From assembly GCA_000165345.1 (NCBI GenBank), contig CM000435.1, positions 160,001 to 224,000 on the forward strand: DNA of 64,000 bases, read 5' to 3'. Within the stretch, counting starts at the first letter, position 1, and each line of letters starts with the position of its first letter. The position numbers and the translations under genes were made by a program. Below the pieces are notes generated by a model that saw only the letters and a list, made by a program, of their open reading frames with translations, was not told where the DNA came from and did not search any database. Shown piece by piece: positions 1,011 through 12,224 of the stretch.

Positions 1011-4000
1011 TTATAAAGCCTTAGATTTTGTTGTGAGTATCTCTCCTAAATCTTGGTCAAACTCTAGATCCAAGTCATTAAGATCAATATCAATTTCGTG
1101 GTTTTCAGTATAGTTATCAGAATTAGAGAGAGAATCAAGATCTTGGGTATTATCTGATTTAGAGAGAGCTTTCTTTGCTTGTTGAATAATTTCTTGGCAA
1201 ATAACAATTAAATTTAAATTAGATTCAGGAGGTTTATTAGAGAAAATTCCAAAATAATCATCTAATTTGCTTGCATTTTGGATAGCTCTTAATAATGTTT
1301 CTGTAGATGCTGTGGAAATATTCTCAATACAGTTTAGACCAGAAAAATAGAGAGAAATTGCTATATTAGGAGTAATATTATGGCTTAAGGAGATTATTGA
1401 ATTAACGTAATTCATGATCCTGGATATGTCTTGTTGGTCTAAATAGTGATAATTTTGTAATGCTTTACTTCCAATAATAGAATGATTAGTGTTAGAATAG
1501 GTGGTTTGGTATTGATTTTGCTCCTGAGTGATTTTATACAAATACTTGATATTTCGAATGGAAACACTAGATTTTAAATGATTATTGATATTAAGAATGA
1601 TTTCTGCTAATTCAAGCCAGCCAATAGACTTGCATAAGTTGGAGACAACATTAATAGATTGATTGAAAGAGTTAATAATGAGTCTAATAGTGGTAGACTC
1701 TAAGGAATATTTTGCCATAATGAGCTCAAAAGTTATCATTGGATTACATAGATCCTTAAGAAAGCAAGCATAATAGAATCTGTAAATGGAGATAAGTCTG
1801 TATTTTTCAATCATACCCTTGAAGTTGAGAGTCTCTGAGTAAAAATAAGAAAGTTGAATACTGATAGGAGAAAGCTTATTTAGCTCAGGGATCAAGTTTG
1901 GATTTGAAGTTACTGTTCGAGAAATTTCACTAATTACCTTAAAGTTAATTCCATTAAAATCAGCAATTTCCATTTCTCCTGGTGTTAATTCACTAAAGAT
2001 TTGAAGATAATTATTCCAATTTACTTTAAAATGTGATCCATTATAAGCCAATAATCCAAGTATAAATATTTGAAGGTTATTTGAAAGATCTATACCAATT
2101 AATTTAGACTTAATCAAATCACTATATACTTCCAATATAATACAAGGATGTAACTGTAATTTTATTATTGAGTTTGCCAAGCAAGTTCCAAAAATCTGAT
2201 AATCGCTAATAAAAGATCCCCCAATACTATTAAAGAATGATAATAAGTACTTTTTTCCAGATCCTAACTTTGTAAGAAAATCATTTTGTCTTAAAATAAT
2301 GTTTAAAATAGATTTATTTAGTTTGTCTCTAGTTTTTAAGCCAATTAATGCATATTTTGAAGATATTATTGGTGATTTGAGATGTTCAAACTTATCTTGA
2401 AACTGATGTACATATTTATCAGAAAGTGAGATTTCGTTAATATTATAATTATCTTTTCCTGAGTCAAATGAAACCAACTGATTCATTACCATAAATGAAA
2501 GGGATAAAAGTATATCCTTATTTAATCCTTGCTCTTGGGAATTCTGTAAAAGTTTTTGGTGATCTTTCGAAAATGTATCCAAAACTGAATGAGATTTTAA
2601 AGCTTCTAAATTTCCTCTAAAAGTGAGCTTAGAAATCAATAATTCTAAACCTCGAAGATCCCTCACCAAATCTGTCTGGATTAACTCTAATATTAGTCTA
2701 AACAAATTTAATTCTGATAAATAGGATTTGAACTCTAAGCTCTGAAAATCGCTTTCATTCAACATATCATTCAAATACTTGAATTCTAAATCATTACCTG
2801 TAAAAATAAAAATTCCTCTTTTAAAGCCTTTGGTTCCCGCCAAATTCAAAGTGCATGTATTAGAGGATGCATGCATTTCAGATTTGGCGGTAATGTCAGT
2901 TTTGCAATGGGAAATTCTATTGAAAAACTGCTTAAGAGTATTTTTTGAAATCCATTCCCTGTTTCCAGTTTTGTTTTTTGTTAAATTGTTAATTTTTCCA
3001 AGCCCAATAGATCTAATAATTATTCGGTCAGCTTTGATTTCTGAATCCATCATATGCAAAGAAGTACAGAAAAGAACTTTTAAATGATTATTTTTGAAAG
3101 CATCTTCAATTAATTTTCTTTCTTTAAAAGATAGTTTTGAGTTGTGAATTGCAATTCCATAGTTCAAGATTCCATCAAGTAATAAGAAATCATTTTCTAA
3201 ATGAAATCCATCTTTTGTCACTCTTTTCAGATTTTCAATCATTTCAATTCTATAAGGTTTATCTTGGCTAATTTGGGATAAAAAAGATCCAAATTTATCG
3301 TTTATTAGATTTTTTTGTGTAGAAGTGATATTGTTTTCCTTGTTTAAAAGAATTTCAGAAATCTCCATTGAAATTATTTGGAGTGATTTTCTGCACCATT
3401 CAATTGTTGGACAGAAAATTAGAGCCTTTTTATTATTCATTAAAGATTCCAAGATTAAATCTGAAAAGTACTTCAAATCACTAATAGCAGTTTGTTGAAA
3501 GATGTTATTGTTCTTATCATTCTTAAAAATTTCAATGATTTCAAATATTTCGTTTTCATTTAATGATTGATTATTGTACTTTAACTTATCCCAGAAATAT
3601 AAACTATTACCTCTTTTAATATAAACATCAGGTTCACATTCTTTCTCATACTTGTGATTTTCAAAGATTCTACCAACTTTGAGTACATTCTTATATATAT
3701 CCAAATTAGGAATTCCCCCATTTGAAACATATAAACAGGTTAATGGTCCATTTTTTCCCTTGTAATTATTATTCTTTATATAATAATCACTCACCAAATT
3801 TACGTAAGAAATTTTTGTGAGAATATTCTCCAATAGATGACCCCTCTCTGGATCTTCAATAAAGTTTATATCATCAACAATAACAGTTTTAATACACTCA
3901 TTAAGCATATTGTCTGAAATAAGACGATTTATGAGCGAATTAGCCTTTTCCAATGTGCATATGGTCAAGTCTATATTTGGAAACCAACTTGTGTTGATAG

Positions 4001-4730
4001 TTCTTGAGCTTTGCCCAAAAAGTTCAATCCTTAGATTTAATGAATTATTACCAAACAAGCATTTGCATCTCTGGTAATAAGCATCACATTTCTGTGGGTT
4101 TGGAAAAATTGCTAGTATATTCCCTCCAGAATATAATAAGCTACTTAATGCAACAATTTCACAAATTGTTTGATTCTCGTTCACATTTGGAGAAATAATC
4201 AAGTATGGAGATAAATCCTGGAAGGAATTGGTAGCGAGCATATAATTCTGTTGTTCAATTGAAAGATCTTCTTGAAACACCATATAATTTAAAATATATG
4301 ATAATGTATTCACTTGCCAGTCTGATAATCGGTTTAAATTATAATTCATGTAATACTGATGTTTAACTGAATTTGGAATATACCAGTAGCTCAAACTATG
4401 AATATCACGGCCTTTCAAATCAGAAAAAGGTTTTAAATCCATTATATCGTTCAAACTTGAATTGTACCCCCTCTGAGAAACCCCCTTTTCTTCTAAAATT
4501 GAAAGTTCTCTTTTTGCCACTCCAAAGCATTCTGGTTCCATAACTGAATCACCAGAAACTGAAACAAAACATTTTTTCGATTCGCCTTTTTCTCCAAACA
4601 CTTTTCTCCAAATACCTAATCTTCTTTTGGGAGATATTATCAACAAATTATTTAAATATGTATAAAATTTTGAGACCGTTATCAATGTCTTTGCATTATT
4701 ATTAATTACCTTTGATCTCTCGTTCTGCAT
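1011..4730 (-). CDS. HEL308/POLQ-type (Ski2-like) helicase homologue with degenerate ATPase motifs, 1239 aa
   Basis: ...LSSLLYSGGNILAIFP... aligns to the POLQ/HEL308 Walker A region (LIYSLPTSGGKTLVAEIL) with K->N and T->I. VIVDDINFIEDPERGHLLENILTKI aligns to the DExH box region VVVDELHMIGDxxRGxLLExLLTKI (DELH->DDIN). LIFCPTIEWCRKSL and HLKVLFCTSLHMMDSEIKADRIIIRS match motifs IV-VI context, but no QxxGRAGR is present. Confidence 0.6.
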   Translation of the reverse strand: MQNERSKVINNNAKTLITVSKFYTYLNNLLIISPKRRLGIWRKVFGEKGESKKCFVSVSGDSVMEPECFGVAKRELSILEEKGVSQRGYNSSLNDIMDLKPFSDLKGRDIHSLSYWYIPNSVKHQYYMNYNLNRLSDWQVNTLSYILNYMVFQEDLSIEQQNYMLATNSFQDLSPYLIISPNVNENQTICEIVALSSLLYSGGNILAIFPNPQKCDAYYQRCKCLFGNNSLNLRIELFGQSSRTINTSWFPNIDLTICTLEKANSLINRLISDNMLNECIKTVIVDDINFIEDPERGHLLENILTKISYVNLVSDYYIKNNNYKGKNGPLTCLYVSNGGIPNLDIYKNVLKVGRIFENHKYEKECEPDVYIKRGNSLYFWDKLKYNNQSLNENEIFEIIEIFKNDKNNNIFQQTAISDLKYFSDLILESLMNNKKALIFCPTIEWCRKSLQIISMEISEILLNKENNITSTQKNLINDKFGSFLSQISQDKPYRIEMIENLKRVTKDGFHLENDFLLLDGILNYGIAIHNSKLSFKERKLIEDAFKNNHLKVLFCTSLHMMDSEIKADRIIIRSIGLGKINNLTKNKTGNREWISKNTLKQFFNRISHCKTDITAKSEMHASSNTCTLNLAGTKGFKRGIFIFTGNDLEFKYLNDMLNESDFQSLEFKSYLSELNLFRLILELIQTDLVRDLRGLELLISKLTFRGNLEALKSHSVLDTFSKDHQKLLQNSQEQGLNKDILLSLSFMVMNQLVSFDSGKDNYNINEISLSDKYVHQFQDKFEHLKSPIISSKYALIGLKTRDKLNKSILNIILRQNDFLTKLGSGKKYLLSFFNSIGGSFISDYQIFGTCLANSIIKLQLHPCIILEVYSDLIKSKLIGIDLSNNLQIFILGLLAYNGSHFKVNWNNYLQIFSELTPGEMEIADFNGINFKVISEISRTVTSNPNLIPELNKLSPISIQLSYFYSETLNFKGMIEKYRLISIYRFYYACFLKDLCNPMITFELIMAKYSLESTTIRLIINSFNQSINVVSNLCKSIGWLELAEIILNINNHLKSSVSIRNIKYLYKITQEQNQYQTTYSNTNHSIIGSKALQNYHYLDQQDISRIMNYVNSIISLSHNITPNIAISLYFSGLNCIENISTASTETLLRAIQNASKLDDYFGIFSNKPPESNLNLIVICQEIIQQAKKALSKSDNTQDLDSLSNSDNYTENHEIDIDLNDLDLEFDQDLGEILTTKSKAL

Positions 4731-5417: not shown

Positions 5418-6512
5418 TTATACACGTATAACTTCACTTGAAATATATTGTAAGAAGAATGCACCCGTAATTAATGCTAAGAAAGATATTATAAACAAAT
5501 TTGTTGGAATTCTTTCTTGAACAGTCTTTGACGGTGCCTCATATAACTTCTCTGCTAAGTTTTCTTGCATTTTATTATCATCATTAGCCAACTCAGTTTT
5601 TTGACTAATATTTATTTGAGCTCCTTCAATCAGTCCTTTTTGTATAATTCTAACTTGTTTTAACTCACTTCCAAGCTTTTCCAAGCTTTTATCTTCCTCG
5701 CGTGCCAATAAATCAACTTGTTCACTCCAACGTCCCTTTGAAGTTGTCTTGAAATTAAGCTTTGGCCTTTCTTTAATTTCTAAACTTCTTGATTCTACTT
5801 CATAAGCTGAGTTTATTGGATTTTCATTCAAAACATTCTTCATCTCCTCTAATTGGGAACTTAATAGTGGATCTACTTTTTCATGTTCAGTTTTATGATT
5901 CTTTCTTCTGAAAAAGTCTGCTCTTCTATAAATAACACTTTTACATGATCTTCCTTCTGGTGAACTATTAACCTTTTTTGTTAAAATTATGAATGCATGA
6001 ATTACCTGATTACTATTACTCCCTGAAATTGTTATAATTCTTTCATTACATGCTTTCTCAGATGTTACAAAAATTGGAGAAATATTAATATGAGCACTAG
6101 TTGCTGTCCTTACGTGGCTAATAAACTCTCCTTTTATCCCTATTATACTTCCTATCACACTTCTTGGGACGGCAAGACGAATATTATATTCATAATTCTT
6201 TAAACCTTCTTGCCCATCATCCTTATTGTTCTTCAAAAGAAAATCTAAAACTTCCATTGTTTCATTCACATTCTTCTCATTTCCTTCTAAAGTTGCTACT
6301 CTATAATTTGTACCTGGAAAATATTTATTAGTACCAGAAACCAGGATAAAAACGTGATTTACCTGTTTAATCTTTTTCAATATTGAACCTGAGTTACTTA
6401 ATATCCTATTTGCAGCTTTATCACTAATCAACAGCTTCACAAAAATTATCTGTTCCTCGTCACTCTGCATATTTATGTAATTTGTTCTTTCCATATTTGA
6501 ACTGTTTACCAT
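5418..6512 (-). CDS. KH-domain RNA-binding protein (two KH domains) with a C-terminal hydrophobic transmembrane segment, 364 aa
   Basis: RLAVPRSVIGSIIGIKGEFISHVR is a classic KH core (VIGxxIGxxGxxI). An earlier IFVKLLISDKAANRILSNSGSILKKIKQ is KH-like. The protein ends with NLFIISFLALITGAFFLQYISSEVIRV (a ~20-residue hydrophobic tail). The E2F-like half-site TTTCCGCC at 6743-6750 lies upstream. Confidence 0.55.
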   Translation of the reverse strand: MVNSSNMERTNYINMQSDEEQIIFVKLLISDKAANRILSNSGSILKKIKQVNHVFILVSGTNKYFPGTNYRVATLEGNEKNVNETMEVLDFLLKNNKDDGQEGLKNYEYNIRLAVPRSVIGSIIGIKGEFISHVRTATSAHINISPIFVTSEKACNERIITISGSNSNQVIHAFIILTKKVNSSPEGRSCKSVIYRRADFFRRKNHKTEHEKVDPLLSSQLEEMKNVLNENPINSAYEVESRSLEIKERPKLNFKTTSKGRWSEQVDLLAREEDKSLEKLGSELKQVRIIQKGLIEGAQINISQKTELANDDNKMQENLAEKLYEAPSKTVQERIPTNLFIISFLALITGAFFLQYISSEVIRV

Positions 6513-7285: not shown

Positions 7286-7726
7286 TTAAAGTATGGAATC
7301 CTGATTAAAACTGTTAAGATTAGGAATTCTCTGATTTTCGTAGTTGTTAATGATCCAAAACAAAAATCTTTTCTTTAAAACATTTTCTATATTATATTCT
7401 TTTTCAGGTTTAAAAATATAATTATTTGATTTTTTCTCAGTTCCCACACACAAATTCTCAGAATCAACTTGGCGCCAATCCCCAAAATATTTTTTAGAAA
7501 TATTACGTGTCAAAATATTAAATTTTGTTTTTGTAATGTTGGATTGAGGGATACATTCTTGGTTGATGGATTTAATATTCTTAAGTATATCATCAATTTC
7601 TATGTGTTCGTGGAAGTTGTTCGGAATTAAATCTAGGAATTGCTTGTAAACTTCAAGATATTTATCGAGTGTATTTTGTTGAATACCGGTAAAATCTTCA
7701 TTTAAAATCATGCATGAAATATCCAT
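7286..7726 (-). CDS. Hypothetical protein, 146 aa
   Basis: An uninterrupted 146-codon ORF is unlikely by chance in ~75% AT DNA. No recognisable domain. A TTGGCGCCAA site lies inside it (7469-7478), so its coding status is uncertain. Confidence 0.3.
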   Translation of the reverse strand: MDISCMILNEDFTGIQQNTLDKYLEVYKQFLDLIPNNFHEHIEIDDILKNIKSINQECIPQSNITKTKFNILTRNISKKYFGDWRQVDSENLCVGTEKKSNNYIFKPEKEYNIENVLKKRFLFWIINNYENQRIPNLNSFNQDSIL

Positions 7727-8066: not shown

Positions 8067-11000
8067 TTAACTATTAATGTAGTAAAGAATATGAGAATTC
8101 TCTGTACTAAAAATGTTCTTATTTCCTGAAATATAATTCTTTAGAGATTTATAAACTGTAAAGTATTGCGAAACTTTCTCCTCAAGACAGTTGGATTTCC
8201 AATTATTAACAAACTCTAATATAACATTTCTCTGATTATCACTTTGATCCTGGTTTTCAGATATCTTAGGAGAAAATGAACTCGGTCTTTTAGGAGGATC
8301 TCTAAAGGAGTCTGTTTTTGAAAGCAGGTCTGATAATACTAGACAGATCTGACAAACTAAGCAAGTTATAAAATATATAAATCCTTTTTCACTTAAGCTT
8401 AAATTGTTAAGTAATTTCCCATTGTAGTATTTCTGGACAACTATCCATTTATCATCATAATTATAATCTTCATAACTTACTTCACTTCCATAGCTTTTGC
8501 TCTTTGTAATTGTTTTTAAATCAAATCTTCTAAATAGCATGACCAAATACTCTTGTATTACCTGAATTGTGCTATAAACTCTACTAATATTCCTCTCAAT
8601 ATCCCAAATCAACTTTTGAAGCTCCTCTGAAAATGAATCATATAGGTACCCTTGAGAGAATTTAATGTATAAATTATAGTCTGTTGTATACTTTCTACAC
8701 CAAATATAAAGAGCAATTCTTCCAACAAAATTCTTTAAATTAATAAATCTTTTTGAAATTGTCTCCAATAAAACTATTATCTGGAAAAGCTTTATAAATT
8801 CCTCCTCTCCTTGCTCTTTTCCAATCTTTTGTATATCAAAAGTACTAAAAACCTCACTAATATTGATTTGTTTTTTAAAGTATTTACTCAAATCTAAATC
8901 CAATCCAAATACTAACTTGATCAAATTCTCATACTGTAAACAACCGTTCACAGAAATATAGTTATTCAACTGCTTTGTATAAGCAGTATGATAGTTTTCT
9001 CTCAATTTTAAATTTTCGATACCTCTTTCTTCTGATACAAGATCACACTGACTTGTTAAGATGAATTTCTTTTTTTTAACTTTGTCTTGAATTAATTCTT
9101 TTAGAGACTCAAACTCTTCTTGAATAGATATTCCTATATTATATTCATTTCTTTGATAGCTTTTATCTGCAAGAAGTCCTCCAATCTCAAAAGCTAAATC
9201 TATATATTCATTTATATTAAATTCAAGTCCAATGATATTTTCAAAAGCTTGATCTAAACTTTTAAAGTAAATCTCATAAACTTTATTAAAATCTAGTTGG
9301 TTTTTCTTTAAATACTCCATTATTGCTATTTGTGTAATTTTTTTTATATTTTCTGTTTCTTGAAAATTTTTTATCGGTACTGGTACACGTGGCAATTCTG
9401 CATCATGATCATGATCATGAACATCAAGTTCTGACTCCGAATTCAGATCAATATAGATTTTATTATTAAATTTAAAATCTTGCGTAAATACATTAATATC
9501 TGAAAAAAACATTGAGAGATCTTGTTTTTCAAGTGGAATAGTTTTTGCTAAAGCCATGTTTCCATGATTTCTGCCTGTTACTTGGAAAGTTTTATTAAAA
9601 GAGATTCTTTTAATCATTAAAATTCTAAGTAATACTGGTACAACAAGTCTCAAAATGGATTTATTCAAGGATAAATTTGCTTTCAATTTAAGCTCTAAAT
9701 TGTTACTTTCCTTATTTGATGTAATATAATCCAATTTATCTTTGAAAATACCCCTTTGTAAGTTTTTATAGATCACGCTCAAAATATGACCACTACTATA
9801 GATACCTTTATCTATTCTATTATTTATATCTTTTCGGCCATCAATATTTATAAAGTAATTATTTGAAATGATATAATAAGGATTTATTTGGAATTGCCAT
9901 AAATAAGTATAAATATAGCTCAAGAGGGAGTATCCATGAGGAATCTTCCAGGTTCTAGTCTCTTCTCTTCCTGAATATGATCTTAATTTGAAGATACTAA
10001 CCAGAATTTCAAAAGATGGAGAAAATTCATCTAATAAAGCAATGAGGTTCAGATAGCTACTGGTTTTAGTAGAGCTTAGATTAGAAATATGATCATTTCC
10101 ATAATTAAACTTAGAAAAACATAGTTCAATATCTCCAAAATACATATGCAAGAGCTCAAAAATAACTTTCCCTAGGATTTTAATGGATACCATACTTTCT
10201 TCTATAGATATCTGATTACATTTTAAATATTCATTCTTTGTTATTGATTCTAATTTTTGTTGATCATTCATCATATCTCCAAGCATAATCAACAATTCTG
10301 CTAAGCTTCTCAAATAGTGTACTTTTGTTCCAAATAAACAAATCATTGAGACAAGATCTTGAGACAGAAATATTTGTTCGTCTCGACAACTTTTAGTATT
10401 CATAAAGTCACTCTGAGGACCTAAAATGTCATTTTTCTTTATATTTGTACCAGTTCTTGTATATATAAATTTATCCCCTTGATAATAATTGTTCATCCAA
10501 GGAGAAAGTTCTCCAAATTCTTCCACTAGTTCAAGGGAAATATTGTATTCATCTATAAATATGGTATAGCATTCTAAAAGCTCTGTTTTCTTGTATTCTC
10601 TGACTCTATGGTATTTTGGATAGAGAGAAAATTCTTCTGAATCCAATCCTTGAAACAACTTCATTAATGAATCTAATTTGACCCAAATATAGCCATCTGT
10701 ACTACTGATTTCATTATTTGGACTAACAATAGTGCAGTTTTTAATCCTTTCTGTAGTAAGGACACTTAATATGGATTCATTAAAGATTTTATTGGTCTTA
10801 TTTAGGCTCAGATATTGCTGATCCCATGAAAATCCCAAGTACTTGTTATTATATTGTATTTGCCTTCTTCCAGAGACTCTTCTTAGTAAGTTTGGAAGTT
10901 TGACTTTTGAAAGGTTGCAAATTCTGTAATTCTCATCTTCAGCTTCGTCTTTCTTCTCCTTAATTGACTTGGATAGTCCATCAAAATAGTTAAATGAAGA

Positions 11001-12224
11001 CAAATTCAGGGATTTGGAATCTACAAACTTTTCATTCTTGTTCCTTTCCATATTTATAATTGAACTTGATCGTTTACTCTTTGCTGAAACCTGATTTTGA
11101 ATTTGACTCTGTTGATTATCAAAAATCTTCAGTTCTTCTACTTCTTCCTCTATATCTTCTTCCTCCTCTTCCTTTTCTCCTTCCTCTTCCTTACTAAACT
11201 TGTATTCCTGGTAGAATTCCAGTTCCTCTAGTTCATCTAGCTCATCATCTGAATTACCCATAAATGATGCAAGTAAAGAGTTTCTATTTTTTCTAATATT
11301 TGTTGAATTTTGTTCTACAGAAATGATCTTTTTTGGTATAATAGAATTTTTAGATTCGGTACCTTTTGTAATATCATTATCAGTAAAATGGAAATTATCG
11401 TTTCCAAAAGCAATTTCAGCAATTTTGTTAGTTTCTCTAGAAATCTCAATTTCTCCCATATCTTCAGCTAATTGTGTTAACTCATTATTGAACAAACTTT
11501 CTTCATTTAGATACAAATTAGAAGCAAGATTCTTAAAAGTAACAATTCCTAGAGCAAAGTCTGAAATAAGATCCATCCAAAAGTCCATATTACTCTTATT
11601 AAAGGCGATACTTTTAAATATTAATGAAGAAAATGTTGAAAGATAAGTTTTGAGATCAAAGATTAATTCAATATTCTCTTTGGCATCTTTTGTTACAGAA
11701 TCACTCAAGTTTCTCTGCATTATAGAGTTCAATCTCCAAGTGAAATCAGAATGATAAACTTTGACTAAGCATTGATTCTTCCAAAAATCCAAATTATAAT
11801 AATCTAAAGATCCAATTAGAATAAACATCATATGTAAAATATAAGATCCAGAAGAACTTTGGTAATACTGTTTAATAATATTGTGAGATAAAATGAATAA
11901 TGGTAAAAAACAAAACATTTGAGTCTCTACAAGCTTAGATCTCTGATCAATAATCATATTCATATTATCCATAGATTCTGGTCGAATACGACTTTGCACT
12001 ACAATATTTGATAAAGTAGAATCTACAAAGTTAATGTAGTCAGAATCTTCCATTGACTTTTTTTTAGTTTTATTGTATAGAATTGTCGTCCATACTTTAT
12101 CTTCTATCCTCTTTATCAAATTTTCATGATTTTTTTCATTATTAATGTTTTGTAAATGATTCTTGACTTGGATTTTTACTAACTCATTCAACAGTTCTTT
12201 AATTGATTTCTCATTCAAAGACAT
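8067..12224 (-). CDS. Large hypothetical protein (1385 aa) with an acidic E/D-rich tract
   Basis: Single long ORF. Contains EEEGEKEEEEEDIEEEVEELK. No family confidently recognised. E2F site TTGGCGCCAA at 12530-12539, about 300 bp upstream of the start. Confidence 0.6.
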   Translation of the reverse strand: MSLNEKSIKELLNELVKIQVKNHLQNINNEKNHENLIKRIEDKVWTTILYNKTKKKSMEDSDYINFVDSTLSNIVVQSRIRPESMDNMNMIIDQRSKLVETQMFCFLPLFILSHNIIKQYYQSSSGSYILHMMFILIGSLDYYNLDFWKNQCLVKVYHSDFTWRLNSIMQRNLSDSVTKDAKENIELIFDLKTYLSTFSSLIFKSIAFNKSNMDFWMDLISDFALGIVTFKNLASNLYLNEESLFNNELTQLAEDMGEIEISRETNKIAEIAFGNDNFHFTDNDITKGTESKNSIIPKKIISVEQNSTNIRKNRNSLLASFMGNSDDELDELEELEFYQEYKFSKEEEGEKEEEEEDIEEEVEELKIFDNQQSQIQNQVSAKSKRSSSIINMERNKNEKFVDSKSLNLSSFNYFDGLSKSIKEKKDEAEDENYRICNLSKVKLPNLLRRVSGRRQIQYNNKYLGFSWDQQYLSLNKTNKIFNESILSVLTTERIKNCTIVSPNNEISSTDGYIWVKLDSLMKLFQGLDSEEFSLYPKYHRVREYKKTELLECYTIFIDEYNISLELVEEFGELSPWMNNYYQGDKFIYTRTGTNIKKNDILGPQSDFMNTKSCRDEQIFLSQDLVSMICLFGTKVHYLRSLAELLIMLGDMMNDQQKLESITKNEYLKCNQISIEESMVSIKILGKVIFELLHMYFGDIELCFSKFNYGNDHISNLSSTKTSSYLNLIALLDEFSPSFEILVSIFKLRSYSGREETRTWKIPHGYSLLSYIYTYLWQFQINPYYIISNNYFINIDGRKDINNRIDKGIYSSGHILSVIYKNLQRGIFKDKLDYITSNKESNNLELKLKANLSLNKSILRLVVPVLLRILMIKRISFNKTFQVTGRNHGNMALAKTIPLEKQDLSMFFSDINVFTQDFKFNNKIYIDLNSESELDVHDHDHDAELPRVPVPIKNFQETENIKKITQIAIMEYLKKNQLDFNKVYEIYFKSLDQAFENIIGLEFNINEYIDLAFEIGGLLADKSYQRNEYNIGISIQEEFESLKELIQDKVKKKKFILTSQCDLVSEERGIENLKLRENYHTAYTKQLNNYISVNGCLQYENLIKLVFGLDLDLSKYFKKQINISEVFSTFDIQKIGKEQGEEEFIKLFQIIVLLETISKRFINLKNFVGRIALYIWCRKYTTDYNLYIKFSQGYLYDSFSEELQKLIWDIERNISRVYSTIQVIQEYLVMLFRRFDLKTITKSKSYGSEVSYEDYNYDDKWIVVQKYYNGKLLNNLSLSEKGFIYFITCLVCQICLVLSDLLSKTDSFRDPPKRPSSFSPKISENQDQSDNQRNVILEFVNNWKSNCLEEKVSQYFTVYKSLKNYISGNKNIFSTENSHILYYINS

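Follow-up and report, generated by a model that had tools for sequence, protein, structure and literature searches.

A conserved, apparently ATPase-dead paralogue of stand-alone POLQ-like helicases in the genus Cryptosporidium

The POLQ helicase-like domain and HELQ are increasingly viewed as annealing and end-bridging machines, with ATP needed mainly for clearing RPA. Dimers of the POLQ helicase align and anneal 3′ microhomologies without ATP (PMC11071473), archaeal Hel308 and metazoan HELQ anneal DNA without ATP through domains 4 and 5, which suffice for annealing, and HELQ lacking ATPase activity still anneals naked single-stranded DNA (ssDNA) (PMC13623763). Pseudo-helicases, with degenerate ATPase motifs and noncatalytic roles under selection, are also known: the C-terminal cassette of Brr2, Utp25 (PMC9539457) and PriA of Deinococcus radiodurans (PMC4504706). 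Their subfamilies are different ones, and they serve splicing, ribosome assembly or replication restart; none is a DNA-repair helicase of the POLQ/Hel308 type. Here we describe a gene at one end of a 64,000-nucleotide stretch of GenBank assembly GCA_000165345.1 (contig CM000435.1, positions 160,001 to 224,000, forward strand; hereafter the window), a region of approximately 28-30% G+C with long, intronless open reading frames (ORFs). Its product matches EAK90553.1 of Cryptosporidium parvum Iowa II exactly (UniProt Q5CYX0; CPATCC_003224), which the database labels a “possible helicase.” It appears to be a new form of the known pseudo-helicase phenomenon, a conserved dead POLQ/Hel308-type DNA-repair helicase beside a live paralogue. 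With a probability of roughly 0.6, we read the gene as a paralogue of the stand-alone POLQ-like (mus308/Hel308-type) helicase that is kept at the same position throughout the genus and has either an ATP-independent role on DNA or a role as partner of the live paralogue. That the protein would be both ATPase-dead and functional is the firmest part of this reading and, judged from its sequence, highly probable.

ATP-site motifs, fold and conservation of Q5CYX0

The ORF at 1011-4730 on the minus strand runs without interruption from ATG to stop over 1,239 codons, as an earlier note on this DNA had it, and the homology to the HEL308/POLQ helicase core proposed there was confirmed by domain, sequence and structure comparisons. 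Pfam matches POLQ_helical (PF21099) at residues 866-1050 (36.5 bits against a cutoff of 27), with DEAD (191-308) and Helicase_C (513-558) slightly under their cutoffs. Among PDB sequences compared by phmmer, the human POLQ helicase domain stands first (1e-24), followed by archaeal Hel308/Hjm (1e-9 to 1e-4) and then Brr2/ASCC3/Slh1. An AlphaFold2 model was built for residues 1-1195 from an alignment of 33 sequences, with a mean predicted local distance difference test (pLDDT) score of 74.7 and a predicted template modelling score (pTM) of 0.71. The top Foldseek matches of the model are 16 POLQ-helicase chains, aligned over approximately 1,100 columns (E down to 9e-31; target template modelling (TM) score 0.66-0.76), followed by Hel308/Hjm (0.61-0.69), with Mtr4, Ski2 and Brr2 lower. 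Because the model aligns in this way to POLQ-helicase structures, the five-domain POLQ/Hel308 fold (RecA1, RecA2, winged helix, ratchet and HhH) is shown to be present at the level of a predicted structure. Hence, by sequence homology and by architecture, Q5CYX0 is a member of the Hel308/POLQ-helicase family of Ski2-like superfamily 2 (SF2) helicases. It is not DNA polymerase theta proper (POLQ/Mus308/TEBICHI), which has a fused polymerase domain: no Pfam match to the family-A polymerase domain PF00476 was found in the 1,239-aa protein, which stops after domain 5. The arch/KOW, DSHCT and Sec63 modules are also absent.

The best match in both sequence and structure is the helicase-like domain of human POLQ (approximately residues 67-894; PDB 5AGA, 5A9J, 9BH6-9BHA and 8W0A). 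The two proteins have in common the order of the five domains, motifs Q, Ib and IV, the “RGxLLE..LTK” stretch after motif II, and most of the contacts lining the DNA tunnel. They differ in that Q5CYX0 has no polymerase domain and no central linker, has degenerate motifs throughout the ATP site, and carries a 12-residue insertion in the unwinding loop, an N-terminal module and extra insertions at 612-640, 697-790 and 1066-1118. Archaeal Hel308/Hjm and metazoan HELQ share the fold as well (target TM 0.61-0.69), but these are active enzymes and more distant from Q5CYX0 (1e-9 to 1e-5).

The features of the gene, with residue numbers and window coordinates, are as follows.

1011..4730, minus: complete coding sequence, 1239 aa, = EAK90553.1
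4431..4640, minus: N-terminal family-specific module, residues ~31-100; three strands and a helix in the model
4302..4325, minus: Q/motif 0 “SDWQVNTL,” 136-143; retained, with W138 and Q139 in all family members and canonical POLQs
3696..4205, minus: RecA1 domain, 176-345, from alignment and model
4170..4193, minus: Walker A (motif I) slot, 180-SPNVNENQ-187
4101..4133, minus: motif Ia/strand β2 “YSGGNILAIFP,” 200-210
3921..3959, minus: motif Ib “CTLEKANSLINRL,” 258-270; retained
3864..3878, minus: motif II (Walker B) relic “VDDIN,” 285-289, against VDELH
3705..3728, minus: motif III relic “VSNGGIPN,” 335-342, against MSATLPN
2781..3695, minus: RecA2 domain, 346-650, with insertions relative to POLQ
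3405..3422, minus: motif IV “LIFCPT,” 437-442; retained
3015..3068, minus: motif V relic “CTSLHMMDSEIKADRIII,” 555-572, against ATSTLSSGVNLPARRVII; T556 kept, GVNLPA lost
2940..3002, minus: expanded unwinding loop/β-hairpin “LGKINNLTKNKTGNREWISKN,” 577-597
2907..2930, minus: motif VI relic “QFFNRISH,” 601-608
2181..2780, minus: winged-helix domain with family-specific insertion, 651-850
1581..2135, minus: ratchet/POLQ_helical domain; Pfam PF21099 at 866-1050, above the gathering score
1161..1376, minus: HhH domain (domain 5), the strand-annealing domain in Hel308/HELQ/POLQ (PMC13623763)

The departures from the canonical helicase lie in the ATP site. The earlier note had placed Walker A at “YSGGNILAIFP,” with the substitutions K->N and T->I, but this location is rejected by the HMMER and MAFFT alignments, both of which set the string against POLQ “RKKALFILP,” the strand β2/motif Ia, and by the secondary structure of the model, which has a strand at 204-209 within it. 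The MAFFT alignment with canonical POLQs instead puts APTSAGKT over 180-SPNVNENQ-187 without a gap, and the HMMER alignment to POLQ begins just past GKT, at query residue 189. In the model this octapeptide is a loop between the strand at 176-179 and the helix at 183-201, which is the place of the P-loop, and here G is replaced by E185, K by N186 and T by Q187. Thus the Lys-to-Asn change stands, at another position, while the Thr is replaced by Gln and not by Ile. In motif II, DDIN (286-289) aligns to DE(L/I)H as had been proposed, with E->D287 and H->N289. Motif III reads SNG where SAT is expected, and motif V, with CTSLHMMDSEIKA for TSTLxxGVNLPA, keeps “TS” and has DSEIKA in place of GVNLPA. 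The canonical motif VI, QxxGRAGR, is indeed missing, but the motif is not beyond recognition: a relic, 601-QFFNRISH-608, lies against QMVGRAGR and keeps Q601 and the first Arg (R605), with G->N, A->I and G->S; H608 stands in the place of the second Arg.

From the perspective of individual residues, five of the eight ATP-site positions examined are replaced (in POLQ numbering, K121->N186, T122->Q187, E217->D287, H219->N289 and R483->H608), and three remain: D216 (D286), Q476 (Q601) and R480 (R605), the last being the first Arg of motif VI. Nowhere in the 1,239-aa protein is there a GK[ST], DExH/D, SAT or GRxGR pattern, so no canonical GKT or DExH sits elsewhere in the chain, and all of the motifs that define an active SF2 DExH helicase (I, II, III, V and VI) fail the canonical pattern. 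Retained are motifs Q (“DWQV”), Ib (“CTLEKANSLINRL”) and IV (“LIFCPT”) and the post-II stretch “RGHLLENILTKI”; the strings that the earlier note listed as retained, DPERGHLLENILTKI (293-307), LIFCPT (437-442) and LFCTSLHMM (553-561), are all present.

Orthologues at 97-52% identity were found in C. hominis, C. tyzzeri, C. meleagridis, chipmunk genotype I, C. ubiquitum, C. canis and C. felis, and in three further assemblies in the same range. When 1.84 billion cluster representatives were searched exhaustively with a profile, C. bovis/xiaoi (2e-242) and C. muris/andersoni/serpentis (5e-157) joined the family. The next matches fall to 4e-36, and those examined, by name or by motifs, are POLQ-type helicases of the canonical kind from animals, a dinoflagellate and Eimeria; the search turned up no orthologue beyond Cryptosporidium. 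The locus is syntenic in 10 species, with a KH-domain gene upstream, PIG-L downstream and, in most, LSM beside PIG-L. In at least 12 species, including the deepest split of the genus, the ORF is intact at approximately 1,200-1,290 codons, with the start codon and N-terminus conserved. Ratios of nonsynonymous to synonymous substitution rates (dN/dS, or omega; Nei-Gojobori method, leaving out C. canis and C. felis against the others, where dS is saturated) are 0.13-0.21 for unsaturated pairs of the intestinal clade, 0.19 between C. bovis and C. xiaoi and 0.32 between C. muris and C. andersoni, similar to the 0.10-0.17 of the neighboring KH gene. The gene is thus shown to be under purifying selection in every clade and not decaying. 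Constraint is strongest in RecA1 (53% invariant, omega ~0.10), despite its dead ATP site, in the first 100 residues of the protein, in the ratchet and in HhH, and weakest in the insertion at 1061-1118 and the C-terminal tail. Highest of all in conservation is the N-terminal module (“RRLGIWRKVFGEKGESKKCFVSVSGDSVMEPECFGVAKRELSILEEKG”; 56% invariant over 7 species, omega ~0.1), modelled as three short strands and a helix at pLDDT ~70-86, for which no counterpart was found in POLQ, HELQ, Hel308 or the canonical paralogue. Homology to an active family with loss of the catalytic residues, together with purifying selection, is what characterizes a pseudoenzyme, and the proposal of a conserved, probably catalytically dead pseudo-helicase is supported by fold, motifs, synteny and dN/dS.

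The ATPase motifs are degenerate in all clades, each in its own way. The intestinal clade has SPNVNENQ, DDIN and QFFNRISH for motifs I, II and VI; bovis/xiaoi have GNYQEYII, DDII and QICSYIN (no Arg). The gastric clade has SPKYFGKS, keeping GKS, with EEIN/EKIN for motif II, MSK for SAT and no GVNLPA; its motif VI cannot be recognized in one alignment and is ambiguous in another, two MAFFT runs giving different results (“EMIEKVK” versus “RDYR” after an insertion). The Walker A Lys is therefore lost in the intestinal and bovis/xiaoi clades but not in the gastric clade. Because the degeneracy differs clade by clade, the simplest reading of these sequences is that catalysis would have been lost before the genus radiated and that the freed positions then drifted independently.

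The live paralogue and the origin of the family

At another locus, the C. parvum genome also encodes a HEL308/POLQ-type helicase with canonical motifs. It is EAK88623.1, a 1,154-aa “mus308/POLQ like SFII DNA helicase, no polymerase domain,” which was found by screening the exhaustive HMMER matches for AT-rich amino-acid composition, followed by a further search. It belongs to the same superfamily branch and has the same stand-alone helicase architecture (~1150 aa), but it lies on a different chromosome (~0.99 Mb versus ~1.3 Mb records) and is without the loop insertion; a C. hominis copy is named “DNA helicase HEL308.” An intact canonical copy accompanies the pseudo-helicase in every species examined; the canonical family was recovered from hominis, meleagridis, tyzzeri, ubiquitum, chipmunk, canis, felis, ryanae, xiaoi, bovis, muris, andersoni and serpentis, and its motifs (APTSGGKT, (V/I)DELH, MSAT, GVNLPS and QMSGRAGR) are unchanged in 8/8 species checked. 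Since these five motifs are invariant in 8 species and the pseudo-helicase family has none of them save the gastric GKS relic, the degenerate motifs are not a matter of chance. The two C. parvum paralogues are 21% identical over 486 residues. Between parvum and muris, identity is 34% in the pseudo-helicase family versus 46% in the canonical one; the former evolves faster, though only modestly. Neither copy was found with a polymerase domain. Brr2 carries its dead and active cassettes in one fused protein; in Cryptosporidium the corresponding copies are encoded by separate genes.

The relationship between the two families is less straightforward. In a crude neighbor-joining tree (727 columns, 200 bootstraps), each Cryptosporidium family is monophyletic (100%), and a separate HELQ clade (99%) excludes both. 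HELQ ancestry of the pseudo-helicase family is thus disfavored by the sequences; it does not group with metazoan HELQ. The tree pairs the two Cryptosporidium families weakly, with a bootstrap of only 51%, but profile scores of the pseudo-helicase family favor the alveolate stand-alone POLQ-like helicases (209 bits) over metazoan POLQ (151) and HELQ (75). Given this disagreement we choose neither a genus-specific duplication nor an older paralogy as the probable origin; long-branch and compositional artefacts are likely. The alveolate proteins (from Eimeria and Cyclospora, as “DNA polymerase theta, putative,” and from Effrenium and Perkinsus) are helicase-only and among the top matches outside the family, with motifs that are fully canonical, unlike those of Q5CYX0. 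No protein of Cryptosporidium, Plasmodium or Toxoplasma came up when the canonical Eimeria helicase was used as query in a word-index search, which may be a limit of sensitivity. As a separate observation, alveolates, as in these four genera, commonly encode stand-alone POLQ-like helicases of approximately 1,000-1,400 aa that keep the canonical motifs and are not fused to a polymerase domain.

DNA contacts and candidate functions

DNA contacts were mapped from cryo-electron microscopy structures of the POLQ helicase with DNA (PMC11071473), with human numbering anchored through a primate POLQ; 22 of 24 published residues were reproduced. Of the nine phosphate contacts that side chains make in the POLQ tunnel, six persist in C. 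parvum and most clades, either unchanged or with a conservative replacement (T190=T259, R193=K262, R200=R269, R226=R296, R425=R538 and T443=T556), and the contact K352=K448 at the double-stranded DNA (dsDNA) entrance is kept as well. Motif Ib supplies three of these, with T259, K262 and R269 matching the DNA-backbone contacts T190, R193 and R200; R200 is kept in the pseudo-helicase family and is Y or A in the canonical paralogue. The unwinding loop carries an insertion of 12 residues (10 in the gastric clade) at the equivalent of POLQ G465-G466-R467. Within the loop, the 10 species of the intestinal and bovis/xiaoi clades share an invariant TGNREW, and every clade has W593. Neither the canonical paralogue nor any POLQ/HELQ sequence examined has the insertion.

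These features suggest how such a protein might work. With the side chains for ATP binding and hydrolysis replaced, Q5CYX0 should be unable to translocate or unwind. The retained backbone-contact residues and the enlarged, Trp-bearing unwinding loop suggest that ssDNA could still be threaded or held in the tunnel formed by RecA1, RecA2 and the ratchet, and without ATP the protein might then hold, align or anneal 3′ ssDNA ends, as do POLQ-helicase dimers and ATPase-null HELQ. Alternatively, Q5CYX0 may be a noncatalytic partner or regulator of the live paralogue EAK88623.1. Cryptosporidium is without classical non-homologous end joining (NHEJ) (PMC6635534), and either role would suit such an organism. 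We favor ATP-independent holding, annealing or bridging of DNA, possibly together with the live paralogue, on account of the retained contacts, the loop insertion, the ATP-free annealing by POLQ and HELQ, and the lack of classical NHEJ. The retained contact residues lend some support to a DNA-binding or scaffolding role in general; that the function is specifically DNA binding, annealing or bridging we hold tentatively, at slightly less than even odds.

Several considerations weigh against this assignment. Four DNA contacts are lost in C. parvum (K347->I443, T445->L558, S622->Q859 and K497->G645), and the conservation of RecA1 might stem from contacts with other proteins instead of with DNA. 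The alignment behind the AlphaFold2 model included canonical helicases, so the agreement in fold is partly dependent on homology, and what we say of the activity of Q5CYX0, including loss of ATPase and binding of DNA, we infer from the sequence and that predicted model. Since GKS is retained in the gastric clade, nucleotide binding, as distinct from hydrolysis, may be possible there. Moreover, no expression data or gene identifier for the helicase gene was found in a C. parvum transcriptome paper and its supplements.

The main alternative, in our estimate unlikely though well ahead of any other, is a pure protein scaffold or allosteric regulator with no nucleic-acid binding, in which the conserved surfaces (the N-terminal module, RecA1 and the expanded loop) bind the live paralogue or other repair or replication proteins. 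Brr2, with its inactive C-terminal cassette, provides a precedent within the Ski2-like helicases, and Brr2 structures are among the structural matches of Q5CYX0. From the same perspective, the most conserved regions include an N-terminal module that has no helicase counterpart, and four DNA contacts are lost. However, a pure scaffold does not readily account for the retention of most tunnel phosphate contacts and of motifs Ib and IV over approximately 12 species, even where the canonical paralogue varies (R200), or for the strong constraint on the ratchet and HhH, which are known DNA-handling domains. A divergent Ski2-like module acting on RNA, in surveillance, splicing or ribonucleoprotein assembly and merely resembling the POLQ helicase, is much less probable. 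Mtr4, Ski2 and Brr2 are detected, but at lower scores, the best matches in sequence and structure being POLQ helicase, then Hel308, and then Mtr4/Brr2; the upstream neighbor encodes an RNA-binding KH domain in all species, but neighborhood carries little weight in eukaryotes. Profile scores favor alveolate POLQ-like helicases, and Q5CYX0 has an HhH domain 5 and a POLQ_helical ratchet but no arch/KOW, DSHCT or Sec63 modules.

Two further alternatives concern the catalytic site itself. An ATPase or helicase that is active through noncanonical or relocated residues could appeal to D286, Q601 and R605, to the GKS of the gastric clade and to the string “GLGK...NKTG” within the conserved insertion; we consider it very improbable. 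Degeneracy affects motifs I, II, III, V and VI together, in a different form in each clade, and neither a P-loop nor a DExH pattern occurs elsewhere in the protein. As a relocated P-loop the insertion string is rejected on two counts: its GK varies (C. felis has GR, and the gastric clade has no equivalent), and it sits at the DNA-entry, unwinding loop of RecA2 and not in the inter-RecA cleft. A decaying pseudogene or annotation artefact might be suspected from the loss of catalytic motifs and from inconsistent database names (“possible helicase,” “DNA polymerase theta,” “hypothetical protein”), but the intact ORFs, conserved synteny, dN/dS of 0.13-0.32 and conserved start and N-terminus effectively refute it.

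With the ATPase apparently gone and the fold, most tunnel contacts and the annealing domain kept throughout the history of the genus, Q5CYX0 would be a natural separation-of-function allele; as such it could reveal which activities of this fold need no ATP. It would also add a genus-specific conserved component to the pared-down DNA-repair toolkit of Cryptosporidium, with possible relevance for the repair of CRISPR-induced breaks and for meiotic recombination in the obligatory sexual cycle of the parasite. An intriguing extension, which we put forward by analogy and as a doubtful one, is that Cryptosporidium, which has no Ku/Lig4 NHEJ and whose two POLQ-like copies are without a polymerase domain, repairs or processes DNA ends with an asymmetric pair of POLQ-like helicases that no other genus has. 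Stripping of RPA and translocation would then fall to the live paralogue, and the dead one, with its enlarged Trp-bearing loop, would clamp the ss/dsDNA junction and hold or anneal the partner strand. This would be a two-gene division of labor like that of the active and inactive cassettes of Brr2, here for DNA end joining or the control of recombination.

Database names and neighboring genes

Several orthologues of Q5CYX0 are named “DNA polymerase theta” in GenBank/UniProt despite a degenerate ATPase and no polymerase domain. This is misleading, since the protein is without a polymerase domain and its flanking genes, KH and PIG-L in all species, do not encode a polymerase; the present analysis corrects these names. 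A split POLQ with a polymerase-domain gene alongside was considered and ruled out, none being found in any locus examined. The same misleading name is given to one copy of the canonical paralogue in C. hominis. Literature searches by accession and product name returned no paper on the Q5CYX0 gene or its pseudo-enzyme nature.

Directly upstream of the helicase gene lies the gene for a 364-aa KH_1-domain protein (5418-6512, minus), syntenic in all species examined, whose hydrophobic C-terminal end (“LFIISFLALITGAFFLQYISS”) suggests a tail-anchored, membrane-associated KH protein. Downstream, within approximately 326-778 on the minus strand, are two short ORFs, 635-778 (“MTIFENQKNVCVLVAHPDDEAMFF...”) and 326-550. 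They look like exons of a PIG-L (GlcNAc-PI de-N-acetylase) gene, because PIG-L is called at the syntenic position in other Cryptosporidium species; if so, this gene would contain introns in an intron-poor genome. Farther upstream, the positions of a 146-aa ORF (7286-7726, minus) and a 1,385-aa ORF (8067-12224, minus) are conserved across Cryptosporidium species, with no Pfam family on record for either in any orthologous locus. Finally, a 102-aa ORF with a TTG start (2779-3087, plus) runs antisense to the helicase coding sequence and has most probably arisen by chance, the sequence being AT-rich.

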